DNA from: a virus
Taxonomy: Duplodnaviria; Heunggongvirae; Uroviricota; Caudoviricetes
DNA: 34,178 nt
Virus record (IMG/VR): IMGVR_UViG_2526164598_000024
Direction: 5' to 3' (one strand)
In this document: piece by piece, positions 3,238 to 27,628 of the stretch
How the letters are laid out: every line of letters begins with the position of its first letter
Numbering within the stretch: the first letter of the stretch is position 1
Position numbers and translations under genes: made by a program
The notes under the pieces: generated by a model
Seen by the model: the letters and a program-made list of their open reading frames with translations, nothing else
Databases searched by the model: none
What the model was told of the DNA's origin: nothing

Positions 3238-3509
3238 GTATTCGTATTGAAATTGGCGAACGTTATGTCGTTACCAGTGACAGCTTTCAGTTTATTCTCC
3301 ACGAGAAAAAGAGAGCGGAAAGCGGTAAAAACGCCGGTCAGGAATGGCTGGCGGTGGTTGGTTATTACCCGAAATTAGGCCAGCTCGTTTCCGGCCTGAT
3401 GCATCACGATATTCTGACCGGAAGCGCAAAATCTTTTGCTGATTTAAACGCGCAGGTTGAGCAACTCAGCAAGCGTTGTTCAGAGGCTTTTGGCTCATAT
3501 GGCCGTTAA
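3234..3509 (+). CDS. Small early protein (P2 orf83-like)
   Basis: 91-aa ORF, ATG at 3234 overlapping previous stop; synteny. Confidence 0.55.
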   Translation: MSIRIEIGERYVVTSDSFQFILHEKKRAESGKNAGQEWLAVVGYYPKLGQLVSGLMHHDILTGSAKSFADLNAQVEQLSKRCSEAFGSYGR

Positions 3510-5775
3510 AGCCTCCGGGCGTTTTGTCCCTCCGTCAGCATTTACCGCAGGCACCGGTAAGGCGTTTACCGGTGCTTATGCATGGAACGCGCCACGCGAG
3601 GCTGTCGGGCGCGAAAGACCTCTTACACGTGACGAGATGCGTCAGGTGCAAGGTGTTTTATCCACGATTAACCGCCTGCCTTACTTTTTGCGCTCGCTGT
3701 TTACTTCACGCTATGACTACATCCGGCGCAATAAAAGCCCGGTGCACGGGTTTTATTTCCTCACATCCACTTTTCAGCGTCGTTTATGGCCGCGCATTGA
3801 GCGTGTGAATCAGCGCCATGAAATGAACACCGACGCGTCGTTGCTGTTTCTGGCAGAGCGTGACCACTATGCGCGCCTGCCGGGAATGAATGACAAGGAG
3901 CTGAAAAAGTTTGCCGCCCGTATCTCATCGCAGCTTTTCATGATGTATGAGGAACTCTGCGATGCATGGGTTGATGCGCATGGTGAAAAAGAATCGCTGT
4001 TTACGGATGAGGCGCAGGCTCACCTGTATGGTCATGTTGCTGGCGCTGCACGTGCTTTCAATATTTCCCCGCTCTACTGGAAAAAATACCGTAAAGGACA
4101 GATGACCACGAGGCAGGCATATTCTGCCATTGCCCGTCTGTTTAACGATGAGTGGTGGACTCATCAGCTTAAAGGCCAGCGTATGCGCTGGCATGAAGCG
4201 TTACTGATAGCTGTCGGGGAGGTCAATAAAGACCGTTCTCCTTATGCCAGTAAACACGCCATTCGTGATGTGCGTGCGCGCCGCCAGGCAAATCTGGAAT
4301 TTCTTAAATCGTGTGACCTTGAAAACAGGGAAACCGGCGAGCGCATCGACCTTATCAGTAAGGTGATGGGCAGTATTTCTAATCCTGAAATTCGCCGGAT
4401 GGAGCTGATGAACACCATTGCCGGTATTGAGCGTTACGCCGCCGCAGAGGGCGATGTGGGGATGTTTATCACGCTGACCGCACCGTCAAAGTATCACCCG
4501 ACACGTCAGGTCGGAAAAGGCGAAAGTAAAACCGTGCAGCTTAATCACGGCTGGAACGATGAGGCATTTAATCCAAAGGATGCGCAGCGTTATCTCTGCC
4601 GTATCTGGAGCCTGATGCGCACGGCATTCAAGGATAATGATTTACAGGTTTACGGTTTGCGAGTCGTCGAGCCACACCACGACGGAACGCCGCACTGGCA
4701 TATGATGCTTTTTTGTAATCCACGCCAGCGTAACCAGATTATTGAAATCATGCGTCGCTACGCGCTCAAAGAGGATGGCGACGAAAGAGGAGCTGCGCGA
4801 AACCGTTTTCAGGCAAAACACCTTAACCGGGGCGGTGCTGCGGGATATATCGCGAAATACATTTCAAAAAACATCGACGGCTATGCACTGGATGGTCAGC
4901 TCGATAACGATACCGGCAGGCCGCTGAAAGACACTGCCGCGGCTGTTACCGCATGGGCGTCAACGTGGCGCATTCCGCAATTTAAAACGGTTGGCCTGCC
5001 GACAATGGGGGCTTACCGTGAACTACGCAAATTGCCTCGCGGCGTCAGCATTGCTGATGAGTTTGACGAGCGCGTCGAGGCTGCACGCGCCGCCGCAGAC
5101 AGTGGTGATTTTGCGTTGTATATCAGCGCGCAGGGTGGGGCAAATGTCCCGCGCGATTGTCAGACTGTCAGGGTCGCCCGTAGCCCGTCGGATGACGTTA
5201 ACGAGTACGAGGAAGAAGTCGAGAGAGTGGTCGGCATTTACGCGCCGCATCTCGGCGCGCGTCATATTCATATCACCAGAACGACGGACTGGCGCATTGT
5301 GCCGAAAGTTCCGGTCGTTGAGCCTTTGACTTTAAAAAGCGGCATCGCCGCGCCTCGGAGTCCTGTCAATAACTGTGGAAAGCTCACCGGTGGTGATACT
5401 TCGTTACCGGCTCCCACACCTTCTGAGCACGCCGCAGCAGTGCTTAATCTGGTTGATGACGGTGTTATCGAATGGAATGACCCGGAGGTCGTGAGGGCGC
5501 TCAAAAGCGCATTAAAACACGGCCTGAGAAGACCAAACCGTCAGCAAAGAAACGGAAACCCGTTAAAACCACATGAAATTGCACCATCGGCCAGACTGAG
5601 CCGGTCGGAGCGATTGCAAATCACCCGTATCCGCGTTGACCTTGCTCAGAATGGAATCTTGCCCCAGCGATGGGAGCTTGAGGCGCTGGCGCGTGGGGCA
5701 ACCGTAAATTATGACGGGAAAAAATTCACGTATCCGGTTGCTGATGAGTGGTCGGTTTTTTCAATTAAACAATAA
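3499..5775 (+). CDS. A: Replication initiation protein A (rolling-circle nickase)
   Basis: Large ORF (track 3457..5775); ATG at 3499 overlaps end of the upstream gene and gives about 758 aa, close to P2 gpA. Contains a tyrosine-rich motif region (AGYIAKYISKNIDGY) typical of rolling-circle initiators. Confidence 0.85.
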   Translation: MAVKASGRFVPPSAFTAGTGKAFTGAYAWNAPREAVGRERPLTRDEMRQVQGVLSTINRLPYFLRSLFTSRYDYIRRNKSPVHGFYFLTSTFQRRLWPRIERVNQRHEMNTDASLLFLAERDHYARLPGMNDKELKKFAARISSQLFMMYEELCDAWVDAHGEKESLFTDEAQAHLYGHVAGAARAFNISPLYWKKYRKGQMTTRQAYSAIARLFNDEWWTHQLKGQRMRWHEALLIAVGEVNKDRSPYASKHAIRDVRARRQANLEFLKSCDLENRETGERIDLISKVMGSISNPEIRRMELMNTIAGIERYAAAEGDVGMFITLTAPSKYHPTRQVGKGESKTVQLNHGWNDEAFNPKDAQRYLCRIWSLMRTAFKDNDLQVYGLRVVEPHHDGTPHWHMMLFCNPRQRNQIIEIMRRYALKEDGDERGAARNRFQAKHLNRGGAAGYIAKYISKNIDGYALDGQLDNDTGRPLKDTAAAVTAWASTWRIPQFKTVGLPTMGAYRELRKLPRGVSIADEFDERVEAARAAADSGDFALYISAQGGANVPRDCQTVRVARSPSDDVNEYEEEVERVVGIYAPHLGARHIHITRTTDWRIVPKVPVVEPLTLKSGIAAPRSPVNNCGKLTGGDTSLPAPTPSEHAAAVLNLVDDGVIEWNDPEVVRALKSALKHGLRRPNRQQRNGNPLKPHEIAPSARLSRSERLQITRIRVDLAQNGILPQRWELEALARGATVNYDGKKFTYPVADEWSVFSIKQ

Positions 5776-5976
5776 TGGCTACTGCCGCAGCGTTGTGGGA
5801 ATGCTATAGTGTTTGTAGAATTATCCCATGAAAAACAACTAATTAATCTGTTTTTCATATTGAACTAATTTTTTATGGCCACAGTTGTTAAAAAGTGAGA
5901 ACATAATCTTGTTCAAAACCTGCTTCTATATACGGAGGCTTTCGCTATAATACGCGGTCGGTTTTAGGAGGGGATA

Positions 5977-6921
5977 ATGCCAACAGTAGTTTCACTTTTT
6001 TCTGGATGCGGTGGTTCCGATGCGGGGGTTCTGAGAGCTGGCTTTGATGTGCTTATGGCCAACGATATCTTGCCGTATGCGCGCGATGTTTATATTGCCA
6101 ATCATCCAGAAACTGATTACATTTTAGGCAATATTGCTGATGTAACTACTTTTCCTAAATCTGATTTGCTAGTAGGTTGTTATCCATGTCAGGGATTCAG
6201 CCAGGGTGGTGCGCGTAAGGCCGATCGAAAAATTAATACTCTTTATTTAGAGTTTGCTAGAGCTTTAAACAATATAAAGCCTAAAGCTTTTATAGTAGAA
6301 AACGTGTCTGGTATGGTTAGAAAAAACTTCGAGCATTTGTTATCTGACCAGATCAGGGTTTTTACTGAAGCAGGTTATGCTGTTTCAGCAAAAGTTTTGA
6401 ATGCGGCTGAATATGGAGTAGCGCAGGAAAGAAAAAGAATATTTATCGTAGGAATCCGTAATGATTTCAAAGTTAAGTACGAGTTCCCTCAGCCAACTCA
6501 TGGGCCGGCGACTGGCGTCAACTATGTTACTATTAAAGATGCTATAGGGCATTTACCTGAATGGCCAGAAGGTGAATTTTATGATATGGGGTTCCATTGG
6601 TATTATATGTCTCGCAATCGTCGCCAAGATTGGGATCAAATTTCAAAGACAATAGTTGCTAATGCAAGGCATATGCCGTTGCATCCTATCAGTCCTTCGA
6701 TGGAGAAAGTAAGAACTGATGAATGGAGGTTTGTTGAGGATCGGAGAGCTCGCAGATTCAGTTTTCGAGAGGCAGCACTATTACAAGGGTTTGAGGATCT
6801 AGTGTTTCCCGAAACAAATGCTGCAAGTCTTGGCATGAAATACACGGTGGTTGGTAATGCAGTGCCTCCGCCGCTTTTTGAAGCTGTAACGAAGGCATTG
6901 CCAATAGAATTATGGGATTGA
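5977..6921 (+). CDS. DNA (cytosine-5)-methyltransferase, Dcm family
   Basis: 314 aa; canonical C5-MTase motifs visible: FSGCGG (motif I, AdoMet binding), PCQGFS (motif IV catalytic Cys), IVENVSGM (motif VI), QERKRIFIVG (motif VIII), GNAVPPPL (motif X). Strong Shine-Dalgarno AGGAGG before ATG 5977. AT-rich compared with phage backbone. Confidence 0.9.
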   Translation: MPTVVSLFSGCGGSDAGVLRAGFDVLMANDILPYARDVYIANHPETDYILGNIADVTTFPKSDLLVGCYPCQGFSQGGARKADRKINTLYLEFARALNNIKPKAFIVENVSGMVRKNFEHLLSDQIRVFTEAGYAVSAKVLNAAEYGVAQERKRIFIVGIRNDFKVKYEFPQPTHGPATGVNYVTIKDAIGHLPEWPEGEFYDMGFHWYYMSRNRRQDWDQISKTIVANARHMPLHPISPSMEKVRTDEWRFVEDRRARRFSFREAALLQGFEDLVFPETNAASLGMKYTVVGNAVPPPLFEAVTKALPIELWD

Positions 6922-6928
6922 TAAGCTA

Positions 6929-7921
6929 TTAAGGCTCTGGATTTAATGTATAAAGTTCTTCTTCAAATTCGCGAAACCAATCAGAGGTAGTTATCGCTTC
7001 CCATTGGTTTGCCTTATCAAGTAGATATATGATCCTCAACCTATCTAATAATAATACACCAGCGGTTGCATGTGTGCTTACCCATTCGCCATTTGCTTCC
7101 CGATAGAAAACAGGCGTGAACATTGTTGATGGATGCTGGAAAGCAATTTGGAAATAGGTGGTCAGTTTTAACACGTTAGCCTCTAATGTTTTGCTTGGCC
7201 ACCCTGTTTCTTGTGCACCACATTGACCAAGAATTCCATAGTTGCTAGTTTGACCATCAGGAAATTCCACTGTAGCAATTAGGTCAAACCCAGCATCACC
7301 AGATGTGGGAGCTTTATTTATTTCCCTTGTGTTTAAACTACAAACTCCAAGATCTTTTCCTAAAATTTGTAGAGCATTCCGAAGATTCGTTCCATAATAT
7401 TTTTGCCTATCATCGGAGTTAGCATCAAAAATTCTTACGGTGCCATGTGCAGGTAAGAGAGAAATCATTGCAACTTTACATACTCTGGCAAAGCTCTTTG
7501 CCCAACGTTGTGCTGCTCCTCTAATCGACTTAAAGGATCTAAGTCTAGAGCAACAAAGGAGAAAAACATATATTCTTTGTTGTTGGTTTAGATTTTCTTT
7601 AATAATTATCTCATCACCTGAAATTATAAATGGATATATCTTTCCAAGAGCGCTTTCTCTATATTCGAGTTGTGTCCAAACATCTTCTAGTTGCTCTTCA
7701 AAACGATCATTTCTCTCTGCGTCTCCATCAATTTCTTCTTCAAAATTACATTCTTCATCAATTTCTTCAACACTTGTCATGCCGAATTTTCTTACTGAAT
7801 CTAAATCATTTTTATGCAGAGAGTTACGTCCGATATAATTAATCACCGTGAGTAACTCGGCTAAATCTGCAAACAAATGGGGAGAGTTGGGATGCATAAC
7901 TCCTACTTCAAAAGTCATCAT
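6929..7921 (-). CDS. Hypothetical protein, 330-aa, candidate nuclease/effector partner of the adjacent methyltransferase and ParB-like gene
   Basis: Long uninterrupted minus-strand ORF in AT-rich DNA; ATG at 7921/7918 preceded by GAGGTG; converges on the MTase with only a 7-bp gap between stop codons; overlaps the end of the upstream ParB-like gene by about 14 bp (operon-like). No motif I can assign with confidence. Confidence 0.7.
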   Translation of the reverse strand: MMTFEVGVMHPNSPHLFADLAELLTVINYIGRNSLHKNDLDSVRKFGMTSVEEIDEECNFEEEIDGDAERNDRFEEQLEDVWTQLEYRESALGKIYPFIISGDEIIIKENLNQQQRIYVFLLCCSRLRSFKSIRGAAQRWAKSFARVCKVAMISLLPAHGTVRIFDANSDDRQKYYGTNLRNALQILGKDLGVCSLNTREINKAPTSGDAGFDLIATVEFPDGQTSNYGILGQCGAQETGWPSKTLEANVLKLTTYFQIAFQHPSTMFTPVFYREANGEWVSTHATAGVLLLDRLRIIYLLDKANQWEAITTSDWFREFEEELYTLNPEP

Positions 7922-8350
7922 CACCTCTGCTATTTTTCTCTGCTATTTCAGAACCTATAAGCTTAATATGTTTATTGATTCTTCGTGCTACTTCATGAGC
8001 CTGTCTATCATACTCTACTGTGGCAACCATGCCTGCTGCATCTATCAAAGCCGCTTCAACTTGATAAAGTAACTGGAGAAAGTCCTTAGTAATATCAGAT
8101 GTCAATTGGTAGGCCACTGCGAGTGGAGCCCCCATTCGGAATTGCTCCAATGCCTTAGGGCTACTAACAACAGCAGCTAATTCTCTTAAATTACGTGACT
8201 CTCCAACACGAGTTTTTTTATCCTCACCTTTTTTATATAACCACTCAGTTAGCTCTTTTATTTCTTTGTTCTTTAAGCTATTAGAGTTGATAATAGGATG
8301 ACTTGGTATTGTGTCTCCATCGTCTTCGATTGAAACTCCGACAAATTGGC
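7908..8350 (-). pseudogene. C-terminal fragment of ParB/Srx-domain protein gene split by IS2
   Basis: Reading frame continues exactly from the N-terminal fragment (9682..10365) once IS2 and one TTGGC copy are removed: ...ERLGQ|FVGVSIEDDGDT.... The track ORF 7908..8387 borrows an in-frame GTG start inside the IS2 right end. Confidence 0.8.
8346..8350. repeat. IS2 target-site duplication TTGGC (copy 1)
   Basis: 5-bp direct repeat immediately flanking the IS2 terminus at 8351; identical to 9682..9686. Confidence 0.85.
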
Positions 8351-8361
8351 TGGATTTGCCC

Positions 8362-9267
8362 CTATATTTCCAGACACCTGTTATCACTTAACCCATTACT
8401 GGCCTGCTGCCGCAGATATTCCCGTGGCGAGCGATAACCCAGTGCACTATGCGGATGCCATTCGTTATAATGCTCGAACGCCTCTGCAAGGTTCTTTGCT
8501 GCCGTTAACCCGTCTGGTTTAGGCATGATACTGATGTAGTCACGCTTTATCGTTTTCACGAAGCTCTCTGCTATGCCGTTACTCTCCGGACTCCGCACCG
8601 CCGTGTTCTTCGGTTCAAGCCCCAACATCCGGGCAAACTGCCGTGTTTCATTAGCCCGGTAGCATGAACCATTATCCGTCAGCCACTCTACTGGAGACGC
8701 CGGAAGCTCGTTGCCGAAGCGGCGTTCCACCGCTCCCAGCATTACGTCCTGTACTGTTTCACTGTCGAAGCCGCCCGTAGTGACTGCCCAGTGCAGTGCC
8801 TCACGGTCACAGCAGTCCAGCGCGAACGTGACTCGCAGTTTTTCTCCGTTATCACAGCGGAACTCGAACCCGTCAGAGCACCATCGTTGATTGCTTTCTT
8901 TCACGGCCACTTTGCCAGTATGTGCCCGTTTCGATGGCGGTACAGCGGTTTTTCGCTCAAGCAACAGCGCATTCTGGCGCATGATCCGGTAAACACGTTT
9001 GGCATTGATCGCAGGCATACCATCAAGTTCGGCCTGTCTGCGAAGCAGCGCCCATACCCGACGATAACCATACGTGGGCAGCTCTCCGATAACATGGTGT
9101 ATACGGAGAAGCACATCCGTATCATCTGAGTGACGGCTGCGGCGACCATCTTTCCAGTCATCGGTTCGTCTGAGAATTACGTGCAACTGCGCACGCGACA
9201 CCCGGAGACAACGGCTGACTAAGCTTACTCCCCATCCCCGGGCAATAAGGGCGCGTGCGCTATCCAC
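8362..9267 (-). CDS. insD: IS2 transposase OrfB (InsD), DDE integrase domain
   Basis: 301-aa ORF inside IS2; recognisable IS2 InsD sequence (..[20 protein letters not shown]..); overlaps insC as expected for -1 frameshift fusion. Confidence 0.9.
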
Positions 9268-9590
9268 TTTTTTGCACGCCCGTATTCAACGGCTTCTTTA
9301 AGGAGTTCATTTTCCATCGTTTTTTTGCCGAGCAGGCGCTGGAGTTCTTTAATCTGCTTCATGGCAGCAGCAAGTTCAGAGGCAGGAACGACCTGCTCTC
9401 CTGCGGCCACAGCAGTAAGACTTCCCTCCTGGTATTGCTTGCGCCAGAGAAATAACTGGCTGGCTGCCACACCGTGTTGCCGGGCAACAAGGGAGACCGT
9501 CATTCCCGGTTCAAAACTCTGCTGAACAATAGCGATCTTTTCCTGTGTAGTACGCCGTCTGCGTTTCTCCGGTCCTAAGACATCAATCAT
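9225..9590 (-). CDS. insC: IS2 transposase OrfA (InsC), HTH DNA-binding
   Basis: ATG at 9590 gives 121 aa starting [18 protein letters not shown], recognisable as IS2 InsC; track ORF extends further upstream to an earlier start. Confidence 0.9.
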
Positions 9591-9678
9591 CTGCTCTCCA
9601 ATGACTAGTCTAAAAACTAGTATTAAGACTATCACTTATTTAAGTGATATTGGTTGTCTGGAGATTCAGGGGGCCAGT

Positions 9679-10365
9679 CTATTGGCCTAACCGCTCATCA
9701 GCAAGTGCTGTTGATAATACTGAAAATTTAATCGTTTCTTCATCTAGTTTTTCAATACCATAAAAATCATTTTCTTTAATGATTTCATACACCGCTAAAG
9801 CGTCTAGGTTACGCTTGATATGATCCCTACGACTGCCAATAGCTCTGGCAACCTCATAGTAGCGTAGCATCGGATCCTGATTTGCATTGGTATAATCAAA
9901 AAGCTGTTTAATATATCGAGCTTTTGATAAGGGCTCCCATTGTTTGACACCAGTAATATGTCTGAAACCAAGATACGGAAGAATCTCTTCTCTTGTTTGG
10001 CGCTCAATGACAGGAACACGATCGACTGTATGTTTTGCATTTGATGCAATTTCTCGTAGTCGAGCACTTGGATTTTCACATAGTGTCGGATCGCGTAATA
10101 ATTTAACTGCGGATAGGCGACGGTTTCCTTCAACTACAATGTACTTCCCCGGCGCGACACTGTCAGGAATGACAATCAATGGTTCTCCAGGGAAAAAACC
10201 ATTTTCCGCAATAGCACTCATTAGATCTTCGATAGATGTTGAGGTTGCTATGTAGTTAATCATTCCCAATTGGTCACGAGACACGCCTTCAGGAAGTCTT
10301 GGGTTTTCTGTGTCAAGTTCCAAATCATCTAGCGGAACATAAAGTATTTCTGAATCAGCAATCAT
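9679..10365 (-). pseudogene. N-terminal fragment of ParB/Srx N-domain protein gene, truncated by IS2 (stop codon supplied by IS2 terminus)
   Basis: 228-aa ORF with ATG at 10365 and GGAG Shine-Dalgarno; contains ParB-box-like motif IVVEGNRRLSAVKLL (GxxRxxA arginine patch of ParB/sulfiredoxin fold). The TAG stop at 9679..9681 is the first three bases of IS2 (TAGACTGG...). Confidence 0.8.
9682..9686. repeat. IS2 target-site duplication TTGGC (copy 2)
   Basis: Identical 5-mer to 8346..8350, directly abutting the other IS2 terminus. Confidence 0.85.
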
Positions 10366-10779: not shown

Positions 10780-11814
10780 TCAGCCGTTGTCAGTGTCCAG
10801 TGAGTAGTTTTTAAAGCGGATGACCTCCTGACCGAGCCAGCCGTTTATCTCGCGGATCCTGTCCTGTAACGGGATAAGTTCATTGCGGACAAAGACCTTT
10901 GCCACTTTCTCAATATCACCCAGCGACCCGACGTTCTCCGGCTTGCCACCCATCAACTGAAAGGGGATGCGGTGCGCGTCCAGCAGGTCAGCGGCGCTGG
11001 CTTTTTTGATATTAAAAAAATCGTCCTTCGTCGCCACTTCACTGAGGGGGATAATTTTAATGCCGTCGGCTTTCCCCTGTGGGGCATAGAGAAACAGGTT
11101 TTTAAAGTTGTTGCGGCCTTTCGACTTGACCATGTTTTCGCGAAGCATTTCGATATCGTTGCGGTCCTGCACGGCATCGGTGACGTACATGATGTATCCG
11201 GCATGTGCGCCGTTTTCGTAATACTTGCGGCGGAACAGCGTGGCCGACTCATTCAGCCAGGCAGAGTTAAGGGCGCTGAGATATTCCGGCAGACCGTACA
11301 GCTCCTGATTAATATCCGGCTCCAGCAGGTGAAACACGGAGCCGGGCGCGAAAGGTGTCGGCTCGTTGAAAGACGGCACCCACCAGTAAACATCCTCCTC
11401 CACGCCACGACGGGTATATTTGGCCGGTGAGGTTTCCAGTCTGATGACCTTACCGGTGGTGCTGTAACGCTTTTCCAGAAACGCATTACCGAACACCAGA
11501 AAATCCAGCACAAAACGGCTGAAATCCTGCTGGGAAAGCCACGGGTGCGGGATAAACGTTGAAGCCAGAATATTACGTTTGACGTAAATCGGTGAGCTGT
11601 GATGCACGGCAGCACGCAGACTTTTTGCCAGGCCGGTAAAGCTGACCGGTGGCTCATACCATCTGCCGTTACTGATGCACTCGACGTAATCCAGAATGTC
11701 ACGCCGGTCGAGTACCGGTACCGGCTCACCAAAGGTGAATGCCTCCATTTTCGGGGCGCTGGCGGTCATTGTTTTTGCCGCAGGTTGCGGTGTTTTCCCT
11801 TTTTTCTTGCTCAT
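10780..11814 (-). CDS. Q: Portal protein
   Basis: 344-aa ORF, ATG at 11814 overlapping the terminase stop (ATGA); divergent from O/N/M as in P2; length equals P2 gpQ. Confidence 0.9.
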   Translation of the reverse strand: MSKKKGKTPQPAAKTMTASAPKMEAFTFGEPVPVLDRRDILDYVECISNGRWYEPPVSFTGLAKSLRAAVHHSSPIYVKRNILASTFIPHPWLSQQDFSRFVLDFLVFGNAFLEKRYSTTGKVIRLETSPAKYTRRGVEEDVYWWVPSFNEPTPFAPGSVFHLLEPDINQELYGLPEYLSALNSAWLNESATLFRRKYYENGAHAGYIMYVTDAVQDRNDIEMLRENMVKSKGRNNFKNLFLYAPQGKADGIKIIPLSEVATKDDFFNIKKASAADLLDAHRIPFQLMGGKPENVGSLGDIEKVAKVFVRNELIPLQDRIREINGWLGQEVIRFKNYSLDTDNG

Positions 11815-13586
11815 CAGTAAAACTCCAGAATGGTGGATGTCAGCGGAGTGCTGATACCGGCGGTGAGTGGCTCATTTAACAGGGCGTGCATGGTCGCCCA
11901 GGCGAGGTCGGCGTGGCTGGCTTCCTCGCTGCGGCTGGCCTCATAGGTGGCACTGCGTCCGCTGCTGGTCATGGTCTTGCGGATAGCCATAAACGAGCTG
12001 GTGATGTCGGTGGCGCTGACGTCATATTCCAGACAGCCACGGCGGATAACGTCTTTTGCCTTGAGCACCATTGCGGTTTTCATTTCCGGCGTGTAGCGGA
12101 TATCGCGCGCGGCGGGATAGAACGAGCGCACGAGCTGGAACACGCCGACACCGAGGCCGGTGGCATCAATTCCGATGTATTCGACGTTGTATTTCTCGGT
12201 GAGTTTGCGGATGGATTCAGCCTGAGTGGCAAAGTCCATGCCTTTCCACTGGTGACGCTCAAGGATCCTGAATTTGCCACCGGCCACCACCGGCGGTGCC
12301 AGTACCACGCATCCGGCGCTGTCGCCACGGTGTGACGGGTCGTAACCAATCCATACCGGGCGGGAGCCGAACGGATTCGCGGCAAACGGCGCATAGTCTT
12401 CCCATTCTTCCAGCGTGTCGACCATGCAGCGTTGCAGCTCCTCGAACGGGAACACCGATGCCTTGTCGTCAACAAATTCACACATGAACAGGTTTTTAAA
12501 ATCGTCGGCGCTGTTTTCACGTTTGAGCTGCTCAATGTCGAACAGCGTGCAGCCGCCTTTCAGGGCATCCTCAATGGTGACAATCTGCCGCCACTGGCCG
12601 TCCGCACAGAGAAGACCTCCGGCAAGGGCGTTATGACTGACGTCGATTTCCACGCGTTCGGCGGCGCTGGCGCGTCCCCGGTTGAACAGTTCACCCGACC
12701 AGAACGGGTAGGCGTCGTGCGCCAGCGTGGACGGGGTGGAGAAATAGGTCGAGCGCAGGTGACTCTGTGAGGCCATACCTGATGCCACCTTACGCAGTAC
12801 CTGAAAATTCGGGATCCAGAAAATCTCGTCGACGTACAGGTCGCCGTTATGGCTCTGTGCGGTGTTGGAGTTGGTGCCGAGAAAAATCAGTTTTGCGCCG
12901 TTATTGCCCAGGACAATCGGGTCACCGGTCAGGTCAACGTCAACCAGTCGGGCAAAGGCGATGATGTATTCGCGGAACACATACGCCTGCGTTTTACTGG
13001 CCGACAGAAAAATCTGGTTATGACCGGTTTTCAGGGCGCGCAGCAGCGCCTCGCGGGAAAAATAAAACGTCGCGCCAATCTGGCGGGATTTCAGGATATC
13101 GCGGATGCGGTGCTCAAGCCCGGCGCGATACCAGTGCAACTGATATTCGAAAGACTGCTCAAAGAAAATCTGCTCCAGCTTTTCGATAGCCTCGTCGCTG
13201 AAAAAATTCTTTTTCGGTTTGCGCCGCCCGCCTTTGTTGCGGTTAGCGATGTTCGGATTAAGGTCTGCCTCGTTGCCGGTCTGGTTGTAGCGGTTTACCC
13301 GTGCCAGTCGTTCAATCTGGCGTCCGAGCAGGTCAATTTCCTTGAAGTCACCGCCGGTTTTCTGCGGTTTTATGATGAGCTGGGTCAGCCGCGCTTCCAG
13401 ACTCATTTCGACACGGCTGATGGGGGCAACGCTGTCCCAGCCGTCGCGCTGTTTCCAGCTCTGCACCGTCGGGCGTTTCATCTGCAACATGGCGGCAATC
13501 TGCGGCACGGAAAACCCCTGCCAGTACAGCAGCGCCGCCTGACGACGCGGGTCGTGTAAAAGAGTGGTGTCTGTGGTGATGGTCAT
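11814..13586 (-). CDS. P: Terminase large (ATPase/nuclease) subunit
   Basis: ATG at 13586 (MTITTDTT...) gives 590 aa, the P2 gpP length; track ORF extends 10 codons upstream. Confidence 0.9.
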   Translation of the reverse strand: MTITTDTTLLHDPRRQAALLYWQGFSVPQIAAMLQMKRPTVQSWKQRDGWDSVAPISRVEMSLEARLTQLIIKPQKTGGDFKEIDLLGRQIERLARVNRYNQTGNEADLNPNIANRNKGGRRKPKKNFFSDEAIEKLEQIFFEQSFEYQLHWYRAGLEHRIRDILKSRQIGATFYFSREALLRALKTGHNQIFLSASKTQAYVFREYIIAFARLVDVDLTGDPIVLGNNGAKLIFLGTNSNTAQSHNGDLYVDEIFWIPNFQVLRKVASGMASQSHLRSTYFSTPSTLAHDAYPFWSGELFNRGRASAAERVEIDVSHNALAGGLLCADGQWRQIVTIEDALKGGCTLFDIEQLKRENSADDFKNLFMCEFVDDKASVFPFEELQRCMVDTLEEWEDYAPFAANPFGSRPVWIGYDPSHRGDSAGCVVLAPPVVAGGKFRILERHQWKGMDFATQAESIRKLTEKYNVEYIGIDATGLGVGVFQLVRSFYPAARDIRYTPEMKTAMVLKAKDVIRRGCLEYDVSATDITSSFMAIRKTMTSSGRSATYEASRSEEASHADLAWATMHALLNEPLTAGISTPLTSTILEFY

Positions 13587-13759
13587 GAATACCTCGCCGT
13601 GATGAATACACGGCAAGGCTACTGAGTCGTGCCCTGCGATTCGCTAAGGTGCTGTTGTGTCAGTGATAAGCCATCCGGGACTGATGGCGGAGGATGCGCA
13701 TCGTCGGGAAACTGATGCCGACATGTGACTCCTCTAATCACTATTCAGGACTCCTGACA

Positions 13760-24475: not shown

Positions 24476-25003
24476 ATGATGCACTTAAAGAACATAAAAG
24501 CGGGTAACGCTAAAACACTGGAACAGTATGAGTTAACAAAGAAACACGGAGTTATCTGGCTTTACTCTGAGGACGGAAAAAACTGGTATGAGGAAGTGAA
24601 GAACTTTCAGCCAGACACAATAAAGATTGTTTACGATGAAAATAATATTATTGTCGCTATCACCAGAGATGCTTCAACGCTTAATCCTGAAGGTTTTAGC
24701 GTTGTTGAGGTTCCTGATATTACCTCCAACCGACGTGCTGACGACTCAGGTAAATGGATGTTTAAGGATGGTGCTGTGGTTAAACGGATTTATACGGCAG
24801 ATGAACAGCAACAACAGGCAGAATCACAAAAGGCAGCGTTACTTTCCGAAGCGGAAAGCGTTATTCAGCCACTGGAACGCGCTGTCAGGCTGAATATGGC
24901 GACGGATGAGGAACGTGCACGACTGGAGTCATGGGAACGCTACAGCGTTCTGGTCAGCCGTGTGGATCCTGCAAATCCTGAATGGCCGGAAATGCCGCAA
25001 TAA
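24476..25003 (+). CDS. G: Tail fibre assembly chaperone G
   Basis: 175 aa; ATG 2 bp after H stop; P2 gpG length. Confidence 0.85.
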
Positions 25004-25218: not shown

Positions 25219-26118
25219 ATGAGTGGTATTCGTATAACTCAGGCTATTGATAACAATCAGATTTTAGTCAATGTAAATACTTTTAATTATAGTGTTAATC
25301 CCTATCCACTCAAATGTCCTGACCCAAATTGCTCTGCTCATTTGGTGTATGTCAAAAGCCATATTCGTCGGAGTTTTAATAAAACCTTGCATATCCCCGC
25401 CTTCTTTAGACTGGAAAAAAATTTCACGCATGACAAATTATGTCAGTATGGAACTTCAGGATTGAATACAATTTATGCAAGTGATTCCAGTCATGATATC
25501 AGCCGTGCGCTTGCCACAGGTAATAATATATTCCGTATACATATACTCGATGAAGATGATATCTCTAAATTAAGCAGAAAAGCTGCAGCTATGCAGGCAA
25601 ATCCACCTTCTGATACTACAGACCGCGTTTATGTCAAGAGAGGTCGGAAAGCCCCCTATGTGAAGAACATGGATAGCTTACGGGAGATCTATGAATATGG
25701 AAAAGCTCACCCCAACAAGAGAAACAGCATAAAAATTGTTACTGGAACAAGTACTGTAACGTGGTCTGATTTTTTCTATGAAACAACGCAGTTAGAACGA
25801 TTGTCAACTTACCTCCAGAAAGTAAAAATAGCTCAGGTTGCTGTAATTATGAAAGTGCATGTGGCGAGAATCCCTATGGCGAAATTTAATTATCGACACT
25901 TCATTGAAGGTTCGCCAATGAGGATAAAAGGGGGCTTTAATATATATCCTACGATTCAATTAGGAAATGTTACTCCAAAATTATTTCCGTTGAGTAGCAT
26001 TGTCATGGTACTCGGTAAATTTACTATTCCAACAAATAGAAAAATGATAATGGATCCAACATTTGAGCGTGAAGTCAGAACCATAGTTTCTAGTGAAGAG
26101 CAAGTGCTAATTCTTTGA
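25219..26118 (+). CDS. Hypothetical protein in the Z/fun cargo locus (candidate phage-exclusion/defence gene)
   Basis: 299-aa ORF with strong GGAGGA Shine-Dalgarno, visibly AT-rich, flanked by long non-coding spacers between G and FI (the P2 Z/fun position). N-terminal Cys/His cluster (CPDPNCSAHLVYVKSH). May be the P2 Z/fun homologue; I cannot confirm from memory. Confidence 0.65.
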   Translation: MSGIRITQAIDNNQILVNVNTFNYSVNPYPLKCPDPNCSAHLVYVKSHIRRSFNKTLHIPAFFRLEKNFTHDKLCQYGTSGLNTIYASDSSHDISRALATGNNIFRIHILDEDDISKLSRKAAAMQANPPSDTTDRVYVKRGRKAPYVKNMDSLREIYEYGKAHPNKRNSIKIVTGTSTVTWSDFFYETTQLERLSTYLQKVKIAQVAVIMKVHVARIPMAKFNYRHFIEGSPMRIKGGFNIYPTIQLGNVTPKLFPLSSIVMVLGKFTIPTNRKMIMDPTFEREVRTIVSSEEQVLIL

Positions 26119-26437: not shown

Positions 26438-27628
26438 ATGAGCGACTATCATCATGGCGTGCAGGTGCTGGAGATTAACGACGGCACCCGCGTCATTTCC
26501 ACTGTATCCACCGCCATTGTCGGCATGGTCTGCACGGCCAGCGATGCGGATGCGGAAACCTTCCCCCTCAATAAACCGGTGCTGATTACCAATGTGCAGA
26601 GCGCAATTGCAAAGGCTGGTAAAAAAGGCACGCTGGCGGCATCGTTGCAGGCCATCGCTGACCAGTCAAAACCGGTCACCGTTGTTGTGCGTGTGGAAGA
26701 CGGCACCGGCGACGACGAGGAAACGAAACTCGCGCAGACCGTATCCAATATCATCGGCACCACCGACGAAAACGGTCAGTACACCGGACTGAAAGCCCTG
26801 CTGGCGGCGGAGTCGGTAACCGGTGTTAAACCGCGTATTCTCGGCGTGCCGGGGCTGGATACCAAAGAGGTGGCTGTTGCACTGGCATCAGTCTGTCAGA
26901 AGCTGCGCGCTTTCGGGTATATCAGCGCATGGGGCTGTAAAACCATTTCCGAGGTGAAAGCCTACCGCCAGAATTTCAGCCAGCGTGAGCTGATGGTCAT
27001 CTGGCCAGATTTCCTCGCATGGGATACGGTCACCAGTACCACCGCCACCGCGTATGCCACCGCCCGTGCGCTGGGTCTGCGCGCTAAAATCGACCAGGAG
27101 CAGGGCTGGCATAAAACGCTGTCCAATGTCGGGGTAAACGGTGTTACCGGCATCAGTGCCTCTGTATTCTGGGATTTGCAGGAGTCCGGCACCGATGCTG
27201 ACCTGTTGAACGAGTCAGGTGTCACAACGCTGATTCGCCGTGACGGTTTCCGCTTCTGGGGTAACCGTACCTGCTCTGATGACCCGCTGTTCCTCTTTGA
27301 AAACTACACCCGCACCGCGCAGGTGCTGGCCGACACGATGGCTGAGGCGCACATGTGGGCGGTGGACAAGCCCATCACCGCAACGCTGATTCGCGACATC
27401 GTTGACGGCATCAATGCCAAATTCCGTGAGCTGAAAACAAACGGCTATATCGTGGATGCGACCTGCTGGTTCAGCGAAGAATCCAACGATGCGGAAACCC
27501 TCAAGGCCGGAAAACTGTATATCGACTACGACTATACACCGGTGCCTCCTCTTGAAAACCTGACCCTGCGCCAGCGTATTACCGATAAATACCTGGCAAA
27601 TCTGGTCACCTCGGTTAACAGCAATTAA
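26438..27628 (+). CDS. FI: Contractile tail sheath protein FI
   Basis: 396 aa, P2 gpFI length; ACGGAG Shine-Dalgarno; followed by tube gene. Confidence 0.9.
   Translation: MSDYHHGVQVLEINDGTRVISTVSTAIVGMVCTASDADAETFPLNKPVLITNVQSAIAKAGKKGTLAASLQAIADQSKPVTVVVRVEDGTGDDEETKLAQTVSNIIGTTDENGQYTGLKALLAAESVTGVKPRILGVPGLDTKEVAVALASVCQKLRAFGYISAWGCKTISEVKAYRQNFSQRELMVIWPDFLAWDTVTSTTATAYATARALGLRAKIDQEQGWHKTLSNVGVNGVTGISASVFWDLQESGTDADLLNESGVTTLIRRDGFRFWGNRTCSDDPLFLFENYTRTAQVLADTMAEAHMWAVDKPITATLIRDIVDGINAKFRELKTNGYIVDATCWFSEESNDAETLKAGKLYIDYDYTPVPPLENLTLRQRITDKYLANLVTSVNSN

Follow-up and report, generated by a model that had tools for sequence, protein, structure and literature searches.

A predicted nuclease encoded with a ParB-like protein and a C5 methyltransferase in a conserved, restriction-modification-like cassette of a P2-like prophage

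The Caudoviricetes record IMGVR_UViG_2526164598_000024 (IMG/VR) is a 34,178-nucleotide stretch of DNA, hereafter the window, that represents a P2-like prophage. The gene studied here, which we call the target, occupies positions 6929 to 7921 of its minus strand, where it is supported by the open reading frame (ORF) list, RefSeq annotation, and the PHROGs family phrog_3984. The predicted structure of its product combines a winged helix with a PD-(D/E)xK restriction-endonuclease fold. The target gene overlaps a ParB-like gene at its 5′ end and is faced at its 3′ end by a gene for a C5 DNA cytosine methyltransferase. With slightly better than even confidence, we regard the target as the nuclease of a three-gene, restriction-modification (R-M)-like defense cassette that is gated by a ParB-type nucleoside triphosphate (NTP) switch.

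The target ORF (6929 to 7924) is intact and ends in a stop codon at 6929 to 6931. It yields 331 amino acids from a GTG, which is the product described in an earlier annotation made from the letters alone (the sequence-only reading), 330 from the ATG at 7921, and 329 from the ATG at 7918. ATG 7918 is most likely the start, because it gives the 329-amino-acid hypothetical protein that RefSeq/PGAP reports in strains with identical or near-identical DNA and because a Shine-Dalgarno sequence, AGAGG at 7928 to 7924, is best spaced for it. Depending on the start, the target overlaps the stop codon of the ParB-like gene (7908 to 7910) by 11 to 17 nucleotides and is therefore the distal gene of the ParB-like operon. 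The sequence-only reading had placed it there and had described its convergence with the methyltransferase gene, with stops 7 bp apart; both descriptions are accurate, as the methyltransferase gene ends at 6921.

The ParB-like gene, also on the minus strand, is split in the window by a 1,331-bp IS2 element (8351 to 9681, minus strand). The interruption had been noted from the sequence and is now confirmed to the base by a 5-bp target duplication, TTGGC, at 8346 to 8350 and 9682 to 9686. The 5′ part (9682 to 10365) holds the N-terminal ∼228 codons, which specify a ParB/Srx NTPase fold with an EGNRR box. The 3′ part (7908 to 8350) holds the C-terminal ∼147 codons, corresponds to residues 226 to 376 of phrog_3694, and aligns collinearly with the uninterrupted gene of phage HQ103 and of Escherichia coli ATCC 8739, TW10590, and 67-1. 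The intact protein has 373 amino acids that form a ParB/Srx NTP-binding fold, a helix-turn-helix (HTH), and a helical C terminus in a model with a predicted local distance difference test score (pLDDT) of 88.8. The ParB-like protein showed no detectable nuclease or HEPN domain.

The methyltransferase gene (5977 to 6921, plus strand) is intact and encodes 314 amino acids that match PF00145 (E = 5e−65) and TIGR00675. The product aligns with M.HaeIII over its full length, including the target-recognition domain (E = 3e−48), and a GGCC-like specificity is plausible for it. The methyltransferase is the most conserved protein of the cassette, with a mean column identity of ∼0.83 compared to 0.69 for the ParB-like protein and 0.63 for the nuclease, which is the fastest evolving of the three. 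A test for covariation between the methyltransferase recognition domain and the nuclease or ParB-like domains gave no information, as the recognition domain is conserved and of a single type across all 34 distinct cassettes. The window contains 123 copies of GGCC, the site recognized by the M.HaeIII-like relative, versus 186 expected under a Markov model, while CCGG (264 versus 240 expected) and GCGC (267 versus 253 expected) are not depleted; the E. coli background may account for the GGCC depletion, which we do not use as evidence. A Pectobacteriaceae transposon-sequencing preprint that was considered as evidence of methyltransferase essentiality concerns other R-M systems.

The target had been called an orphan, and this view can be set aside. 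A word-indexed search returned 236 close relatives, and an exhaustive profile search returned 1,235 cluster representatives at 50% identity, of which 210 had E values below 1e−30. Nearly all of those listed are 310 to 350 amino acids long, and every source name is “hypothetical protein.” The target matches phrog_3984, a family of unknown function, over its full length (E = 1e−173). It has no significant match in Pfam, NCBIfam, or PADLOC and only spurious coiled-coil matches among PDB sequence profiles, and a Pfam scan of 50 members at 22 to 52% identity found no common family.

Genomic context provides the strongest evidence. Enough flanking sequence was available for 39 close loci (40 to 98% identity), comprising 31 of the 32 loci on viral contigs and eight from Pseudomonas, Burkholderia, and Salmonella. 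In all 39, the 5′ end of the target homolog is overlapped by a codirectional ParB-like gene, while a C5 methyltransferase gene converges on the 3′ end. The elements that carry the cassette are P2-like prophages, other prophages, and integrase-bearing islands. At distant loci (24 to 31% identity), the upstream gene encodes a ParB-like homolog at 35 to 43% identity, and a C5 methyltransferase gene is adjacent in five of six cases in altered arrangements. It is divergent and upstream at locus L013, while the gene order is Vsr, methyltransferase, ParB-like, nuclease at L054; methyltransferase, ParB-like, nuclease at L055; and ParB-like, nuclease, methyltransferase at L050 and L056. At every locus for which sequence was available, the ParB-like gene lies immediately ahead of the nuclease gene or overlaps it. 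That the linkage is kept despite this shuffling of gene order points to functional dependence. The sequence-only reading had seen the geometry of a type II R-M pair; the convergent methyltransferase is indeed conserved, but the unit consists of three genes, with the ParB-like neighbor in 39 of 39 loci.

Repair genes adjoin the C5 methyltransferase gene in two distant cassettes: Vsr at L054 (412 to 825) and an HhH-GPD/EndoIII-like glycosylase at L013 (183 to 878). Vsr is a usual companion of C5 methyltransferases, and both gene products plausibly repair the T:G mismatches that accompany cytosine methylation. These neighbors support the view that the methyltransferase is active in vivo.

The exception to methyltransferase linkage is found on metagenome contigs ERZ25072670 (L051) and ERZ25067264 (L052). 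There, the ParB-like/nuclease pair (∼30% identity; 3881 to 5966 at L051) converges on DndB-C-D-E, and no C5 methyltransferase gene lies within 5 kb. The pair could serve as the partner of another modification, phosphorothioation, or its position could be a defense-island coincidence. It is preceded by genes for a DEAD/ResIII helicase, an SMC-like ATPase, and a “dnd-associated 4” protein.

An AlphaFold2 model of the target, built from 51 homologs, had a mean pLDDT of 83.4 and a predicted template modeling score of 0.86. The N-terminal domain (residues ∼1 to 130, positions 7532 to 7921 of the minus strand, as for all features of the protein) has a winged-helix DNA-binding fold and was matched structurally by winged-helix proteins only. 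It contains an acidic, length-variable linker (residues ∼50 to 80, 7682 to 7774) with a pLDDT of 61 to 72, into which homologs insert up to 16 extra acidic residues; the acidic N-terminal block that had been picked out by eye is this segment (residues ∼53 to 78). The C-terminal domain (residues ∼135 to 330, 6932 to 7519) contains the core alpha-beta-beta-beta-alpha-beta fold of the PD-(D/E)xK superfamily. When the model was compared with the PDB by Foldseek, the top match was MspJI (E = 4e−3, probability of 0.99), followed by BsaWI and the CARF-nuclease VC1899. The folds closest to the C-terminal domain were those of MspJI, NgoMIV, BspD6I, AspBHI, and FokI, and Cfr10I was also matched. The fold-match scores are moderate and come from a predicted model; two methods agree, and the order of secondary structure elements fits the PD-(D/E)xK core. 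Structure prediction with fold comparison had been proposed as a check in the sequence-only reading, and it found a restriction-endonuclease fold behind a winged helix, not a non-nuclease family.

Conserved residues of the family lie in both domains. Across the 50 members at 22 to 52% identity, D19, E22, R88, Y96, F98, and Y118 of the N-terminal domain are invariant, as are L122, F144, and D213, Q233, W241, R274, W280, D293, R294, and R296 of the C-terminal domain, and D209 and K244 are each kept in 49 of the 50. D213 ends the GDxGxD motif (GDAGFD in the target, residues 208 to 213, 7283 to 7300) at the N-terminal end of core strand beta-2, which is the position of the “PD” aspartate. Q233, within GQC (residues 232 to 234, 7220 to 7228) at the end of core strand beta-3, stands at the (D/E/Q) position of (D/E/Q)xK. 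The slot of the canonical lysine, two residues beyond Q233, is occupied by Ala, Gly, or Thr in 47 of 50 members and by Gly in the window protein. K244, the last residue of WxxK (WPSK in the target, residues 241 to 244, 7190 to 7201), lies ahead of the next helix, nine residues past that slot. As read from the alignment, the family motif departs from the canonical site and reads D ... Q-x-[A/G] ... K (GDxGxD213, GQ233C[A/G], WxxK244), in which K244 is a candidate for a relocated catalytic lysine that would be placed at the active site. The sequence-only reading had reported that no canonical PD-(D/E)xK motif was visible, and this was borne out, as family members have Ala/Gly where the canonical lysine would be. 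Its suggestion of a candidate restriction endonuclease or effector gains support from the fold, from the invariant D213 and Q233 together with K244, and from the linkage to a methyltransferase. Nuclease activity of the target is a prediction.

The ParB-like partner carries an invariant EGNRRL in box II (residues 79 to 84), in which the arginines of the canonical GERR are kept and Asn takes the place of Glu. This glutamate is needed for CTP hydrolysis in ParB. Because Asn replaces it, the sequence suggests that the ParB-like protein binds nucleotide and hydrolyzes it slowly or not at all. Residues 1 to ∼150 to 170 are homologous to the PADLOC model PD-Lambda-5_A (E = 1e−25 to 1e−30), while the remainder of the protein does not match that model.

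PD-lambda-5 is a validated two-gene system, carried by an E. coli ECOR7 prophage, that is annotated as “ParB/HEPN, methyltransferase” (Vassallo et al. 2022, PMC9519451). HHpred assigned ParBc to residues 6 to 89 of PD-lambda-5A and, weakly, DUF4145/HEPN near residues 388 to 498, while PD-lambda-5B is a Dam-type methyltransferase (PF02086, MethyltransfD12, N6-adenine) (PMC9519451). Its authors described a compacted R-M plus abortive infection (RM+Abi) system, and cloning it required a host deleted for the mrr region (PMC9519451), which means that its methyltransferase is active. The cassette shares with PD-lambda-5 the family of the ParB-like N-terminal domain, the pairing with a methyltransferase, prophage carriage, and an R-M-like logic. 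In contrast, PD-lambda-5A is a protein of ∼500 amino acids with a HEPN-like end and no separate nuclease gene, whereas the cassette has a separate nuclease-fold gene, a C5 (PF00145) instead of a Dam-type methyltransferase, and three genes instead of two. The target matches no PD-lambda-5 model. The cassette is thus related to PD-lambda-5 without belonging to it.

Classical type II R-M systems such as HaeIII and the CCGG family of NgoMIV, Cfr10I, and BsaWI resemble the cassette in having a methyltransferase gene close to, and convergent with, the gene for a restriction-endonuclease fold. The cassette methyltransferase is M.HaeIII-like over its full length, and NgoMIV, Cfr10I, and BsaWI, in which an active-site residue is displaced, are all among the fold matches of the target. 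However, type II enzymes need no NTP-binding partner, whereas a ParB-like gene overlaps or precedes the nuclease gene at every cassette locus.

A ParB/Srx-fold NTP-binding domain is combined with a nuclease effector in GmrSD/BrxU, SspE, Menshen NsnA-B-C, and PD-T4-2 as it is in the cassette. Those systems use DUF262 (DGxQR) with HNH or BECR/RNase effectors, and Menshen adds an ABC ATPase; the cassette protein is nearer to canonical ParB, with EGNRR followed by a KorB/Spo0J-like HTH, its effector is a separate restriction-endonuclease-fold protein, and a methyltransferase belongs to the unit. Membership in Menshen, which consists of a ParB-DUF262 sensor, the ABC ATPase NsnB, and an inPIN effector (PMC12065111), was considered and rejected, as the cassette has no ATPase gene and has EGNRR instead of DGxQR. 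The best 25 of 26 PADLOC matches were to PD-Lambda-5_A and PDC-M38A only, with no Menshen model among them. The N-terminal half of PDC-M38A (PDLC04607, 715 positions) aligns with nearly all of the ParB-like protein (43 to 349 versus 59 to 350), while its further ∼365 C-terminal positions have no detectable similarity to the target (0 PADLOC matches). PDC-M38A may be a fused analog of the ParB-like/effector pair. This alignment was seen for the ParB-like homologs P0270 and L051:3881-5008.

Three sequence-level signals point weakly to the Mrr/MspJI-type branch of the superfamily. The distant member P0204 matches PADLOC mREase_II (“type II methyl-directed REase”) with an E value of 1e−4 over residues 194 to 235, which is the motif region, while the target and the members P0176 and P0219 do not match that model. 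In DefensePredictor, HHblits gives as the nearest known defense protein an Mrr-domain type IV enzyme with a probability of 54% and a coverage of 0.31. Under a permissive alignment, the GDGGID of E. coli Mrr, the next strand, a W, and the final VLVDGxRL strand-helix are in register with the family. Mrr has a winged-helix N-terminal domain and a C-terminal nuclease domain, the same two-domain layout as the target, and in MspJI-type enzymes a Q replaces the acidic residue. However, the target and 49 distant relatives had no match to Mrr_cat (PF04471) at E ≤ 1. In hhalign, E. coli Mrr alone gave 5%, and the divergent family alignment gave 7 to 18% with a 20-sequence Mrr profile that is narrow, as the homology search behind it returned only relatives with at least 72% identity; only the last strand and helix align confidently. 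Because the formal profile-profile probability is 7 to 18%, with no match among the 50 sequences searched against Pfam, we do not assign the target to Mrr_cat, and there is no significant sequence-profile relationship to Mrr, MspJI, or AspBHI. These three enzymes have a QxK lysine where the target family has Ala/Gly. MspJI-like type IIM enzymes carry an N-terminal SRA-like domain that binds 5-methylcytosine (5mC), while the target has a winged helix there instead. Finally, Mrr, MspJI, and AspBHI are solitary enzymes that attack modified DNA, whereas the target is always encoded with a ParB-like partner and, with the one Dnd-locus exception, a methyltransferase.

MspJI, the top structural match, and AspBHI are both modification dependent, and the target could accordingly be a type IV or type IIM-like nuclease that cuts modified foreign DNA, such as the hydroxymethylcytosine (hmC) or glucosyl-hmC DNA of T-even phages. 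The methyltransferase would then serve another purpose, e.g., shielding prophage DNA from restriction by the host, or would place a mark that the nuclease does not read. The layout and registered motifs shared with E. coli Mrr, the P0204 match to a methyl-directed model, and the type IV Mrr-domain protein named as nearest relative in DefensePredictor all fit this explanation. It is also consistent with the sensing of modified DNA by ParB-like DUF262 domains in GmrSD and SspE (PMC12065111) and with the protection by PD-lambda-5, which is strongest against T-even phages (PMC9519451). Nevertheless, we consider it distinctly unlikely. Such a nuclease would be self-destructive beside a constitutive C5 methyltransferase (39 of 39 loci plus four rearranged orders) unless the mark were excluded, and tight linkage to a methyltransferase that is the most conserved member is the signature of an antidote. 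The N-terminal winged helix takes the place of an SRA-like domain that would flip 5mC, and likeness of catalytic domains is uninformative about the polarity of the substrate. The methyltransferase would be an antidote if the target, together with the ParB-like protein, were a latent toxin that is restrained until a phage cue frees it to kill the cell, or if postsegregational killing stabilized the prophage. The RM+Abi logic was suggested by Vassallo et al. for PD-lambda-5 (PMC9519451), and a ParB-type NTP switch could act as the sensor. This would agree with the residence of the cassette in prophages and integrative elements, which benefit from addiction, and with the nuclease being the fastest evolving of the three, as expected for the component that meets phage proteins. 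Sequence cannot tell abortive infection from direct restriction, but the latter is simpler for a restriction-endonuclease fold next to a methyltransferase, and the target has no HEPN or RNase domain, unlike PD-lambda-5A. We therefore think abortive infection or addiction unlikely.

The family-wide absence of the canonical lysine raises the question of whether the target is a catalytically dead adaptor that binds DNA and recruits or regulates the ParB-like protein as the true effector, acting by NTP hydrolysis or depletion or by nicking, or whether the pair regulates expression of the methyltransferase. There are precedents in the inactive, DNA-binding-only restriction-endonuclease domains of Menshen NsnA (PMC12065111) and in ParB/Srx proteins with nuclease or NTPase activities (PMC12839542, PMC10853773). 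However, over 22 to 52% identity the family never varies at D213, Q233, or W241 and hardly at D209 and K244, which favors a preserved over a decayed site, and Asn for the catalytic Glu in the GERR box of the ParB-like protein argues against a fast NTPase effector; an inactive adaptor is quite improbable. Housekeeping of the prophage, e.g., partition or transcriptional silencing by the ParB-like protein with the help of a DNA-binding accessory and a methyltransferase in an epigenetic role, is very improbable. No ParA neighbor was present in any locus, and the site is a cargo hotspot that varies among otherwise syntenic P2-like phages. Moreover, the cassette is found in unrelated mobile elements, the partner has a nuclease fold, and DefensePredictor scores the family as defensive.

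For the R-M-like cassette with an NTP-gated nuclease, which we favor, we propose the following mechanism. The C5 methyltransferase would place a constitutive mark on the DNA of the host and the prophage. The products of the ParB-like and target genes, which overlap and are probably translationally coupled, would act jointly on unmodified incoming DNA. Under NTP control, the ParB-like protein would bind or clamp DNA and would license or position the nuclease, which in turn may cleave DNA through its variant active site, comprising D209/D213, Q233, and the relocated K244. The nuclease would thus be expected to interact with the ParB-like protein and to be sensitive to methylation, and the cassette would be expected to act against phages. 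Known NTP-dependent restriction relies on a helicase-like motor in types I and III and on the AAA+ GTPase McrB. More generally, the cassette might represent a new NTP-dependent restriction class in which a ParB-type (CTP-like) clamp loads on DNA and licenses an Mrr-like nuclease against unmodified DNA, as a portable “reader-cutter” that is combined mostly with C5 methylation and possibly with Dnd, as at L051 and L052; we regard this generalization as doubtful.

A search of an available literature library found no paper that describes the cassette, and comparative-genomics papers on Menshen, BREX, and Dnd and a survey of ParB-CTPases do not cover it. Table S10 of DefensePredictor (2026), which covers predictions for 3,000 E. 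coli strains, lists the cluster WP_000142509.1, which is the target family, as “Predicted novel defense gene” with a mean log-odds of 13.8. None of the six cassette accessions searched for is in the DefensePredictor table of units picked for testing, as far as that table was accessible. The target family has therefore been flagged computationally before, yet it is uncharacterized. The cassette is a putative restriction-modification-like defense with a ParB-fold partner, and the family of its predicted nuclease exceeds 1,200 clusters at the 50% identity level, comes from many Proteobacteria and metagenomes, and is named by no curated library.

ParB-fold switches are best understood in chromosome segregation and, lately, in long-range transcriptional control, and the ParB folds known from defense are mainly DUF262 domains fused to HNH nucleases. 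In the present family, a ParB protein of canonical appearance always comes with a separate winged-helix/restriction-endonuclease-fold protein and nearly always with a C5 methyltransferase. Should the cassette restrict unmodified DNA, it would add a third kind of nucleotide-dependent control of restriction enzymes. PD-lambda-5 would then gain a more tractable relative with a recognizable nuclease, and ∼1% of complete E. coli genomes, including that of the common laboratory strain ATCC 8739, would have one more active restriction system, which is relevant to transformation and phage work.

The cassette (at least 80% of a methyltransferase-nuclease-ParB query) was found in 48 of 5,426 complete E. 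coli genomes. The ParB-like gene is intact in the three cassette strains inspected (ATCC 8739, TW10590, and 67-1). Positions 5850 to 8350 of the window are 100% identical to TW10590 and 99.8% identical to ATCC 8739, which apparently carries a complete copy of the cassette at 3850111 to 3853163 of NZ_CP043852. The IS2 junction of the window is missing from all 5,426 genomes, which marks the insertion as a recent event confined to the window's strain. By splitting the ParB-like gene, IS2 has most likely disabled or altered the system, while the nuclease and methyltransferase genes are intact; the sequence-only reading had raised a changed or relaxed nuclease activity as a possible consequence. 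The allele is a natural ParB-like knockout that can be compared with intact strains. It does not report on the toxicity of the nuclease because the intact methyltransferase protects the host regardless. A scan for promoters and terminators around IS2 gave site counts like those of shuffled sequence, so that expression of the target downstream of IS2 is not inferred from it. The IS2 genes orfA/orfB (8362 to 9635, minus strand) are codirectional with the interrupted operon, and read-through or an outward promoter of IS2 could drive the ParB C-terminal fragment and the target. A 159-amino-acid ORF at 7908 to 8387 is a chimera that begins within the IS2 end.

The P2-like backbone of the window includes an integrase gene (1 to 1011), the gene for replication endonuclease A (3457 to 5775), the portal gene (10780 to 11814), and the terminase gene (11814 to 13616). 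The interval from replication A to portal carries an insert of low GC content (0.38 to 0.42 compared to ∼0.55 in the flanks), and its position between A and portal is the documented “tin/old” defense hotspot of P2 (PMC9519451). The main text of Rousset 2022, on P2/P4 hotspots, mentions neither methyltransferases nor ParB. A second low-GC island (0.39 to 0.42) contains a 299-amino-acid ORF at 25219 to 26118 (plus strand), the product of which has no Pfam or PADLOC match. It is flanked by a tail-fiber assembly gene (24476 to 25003, PF02413) and by a tail gene that starts at 26438, a location that corresponds to the second P2 cargo hotspot (Z/fun). This ORF is an uncharacterized cargo gene and possibly another defense candidate.

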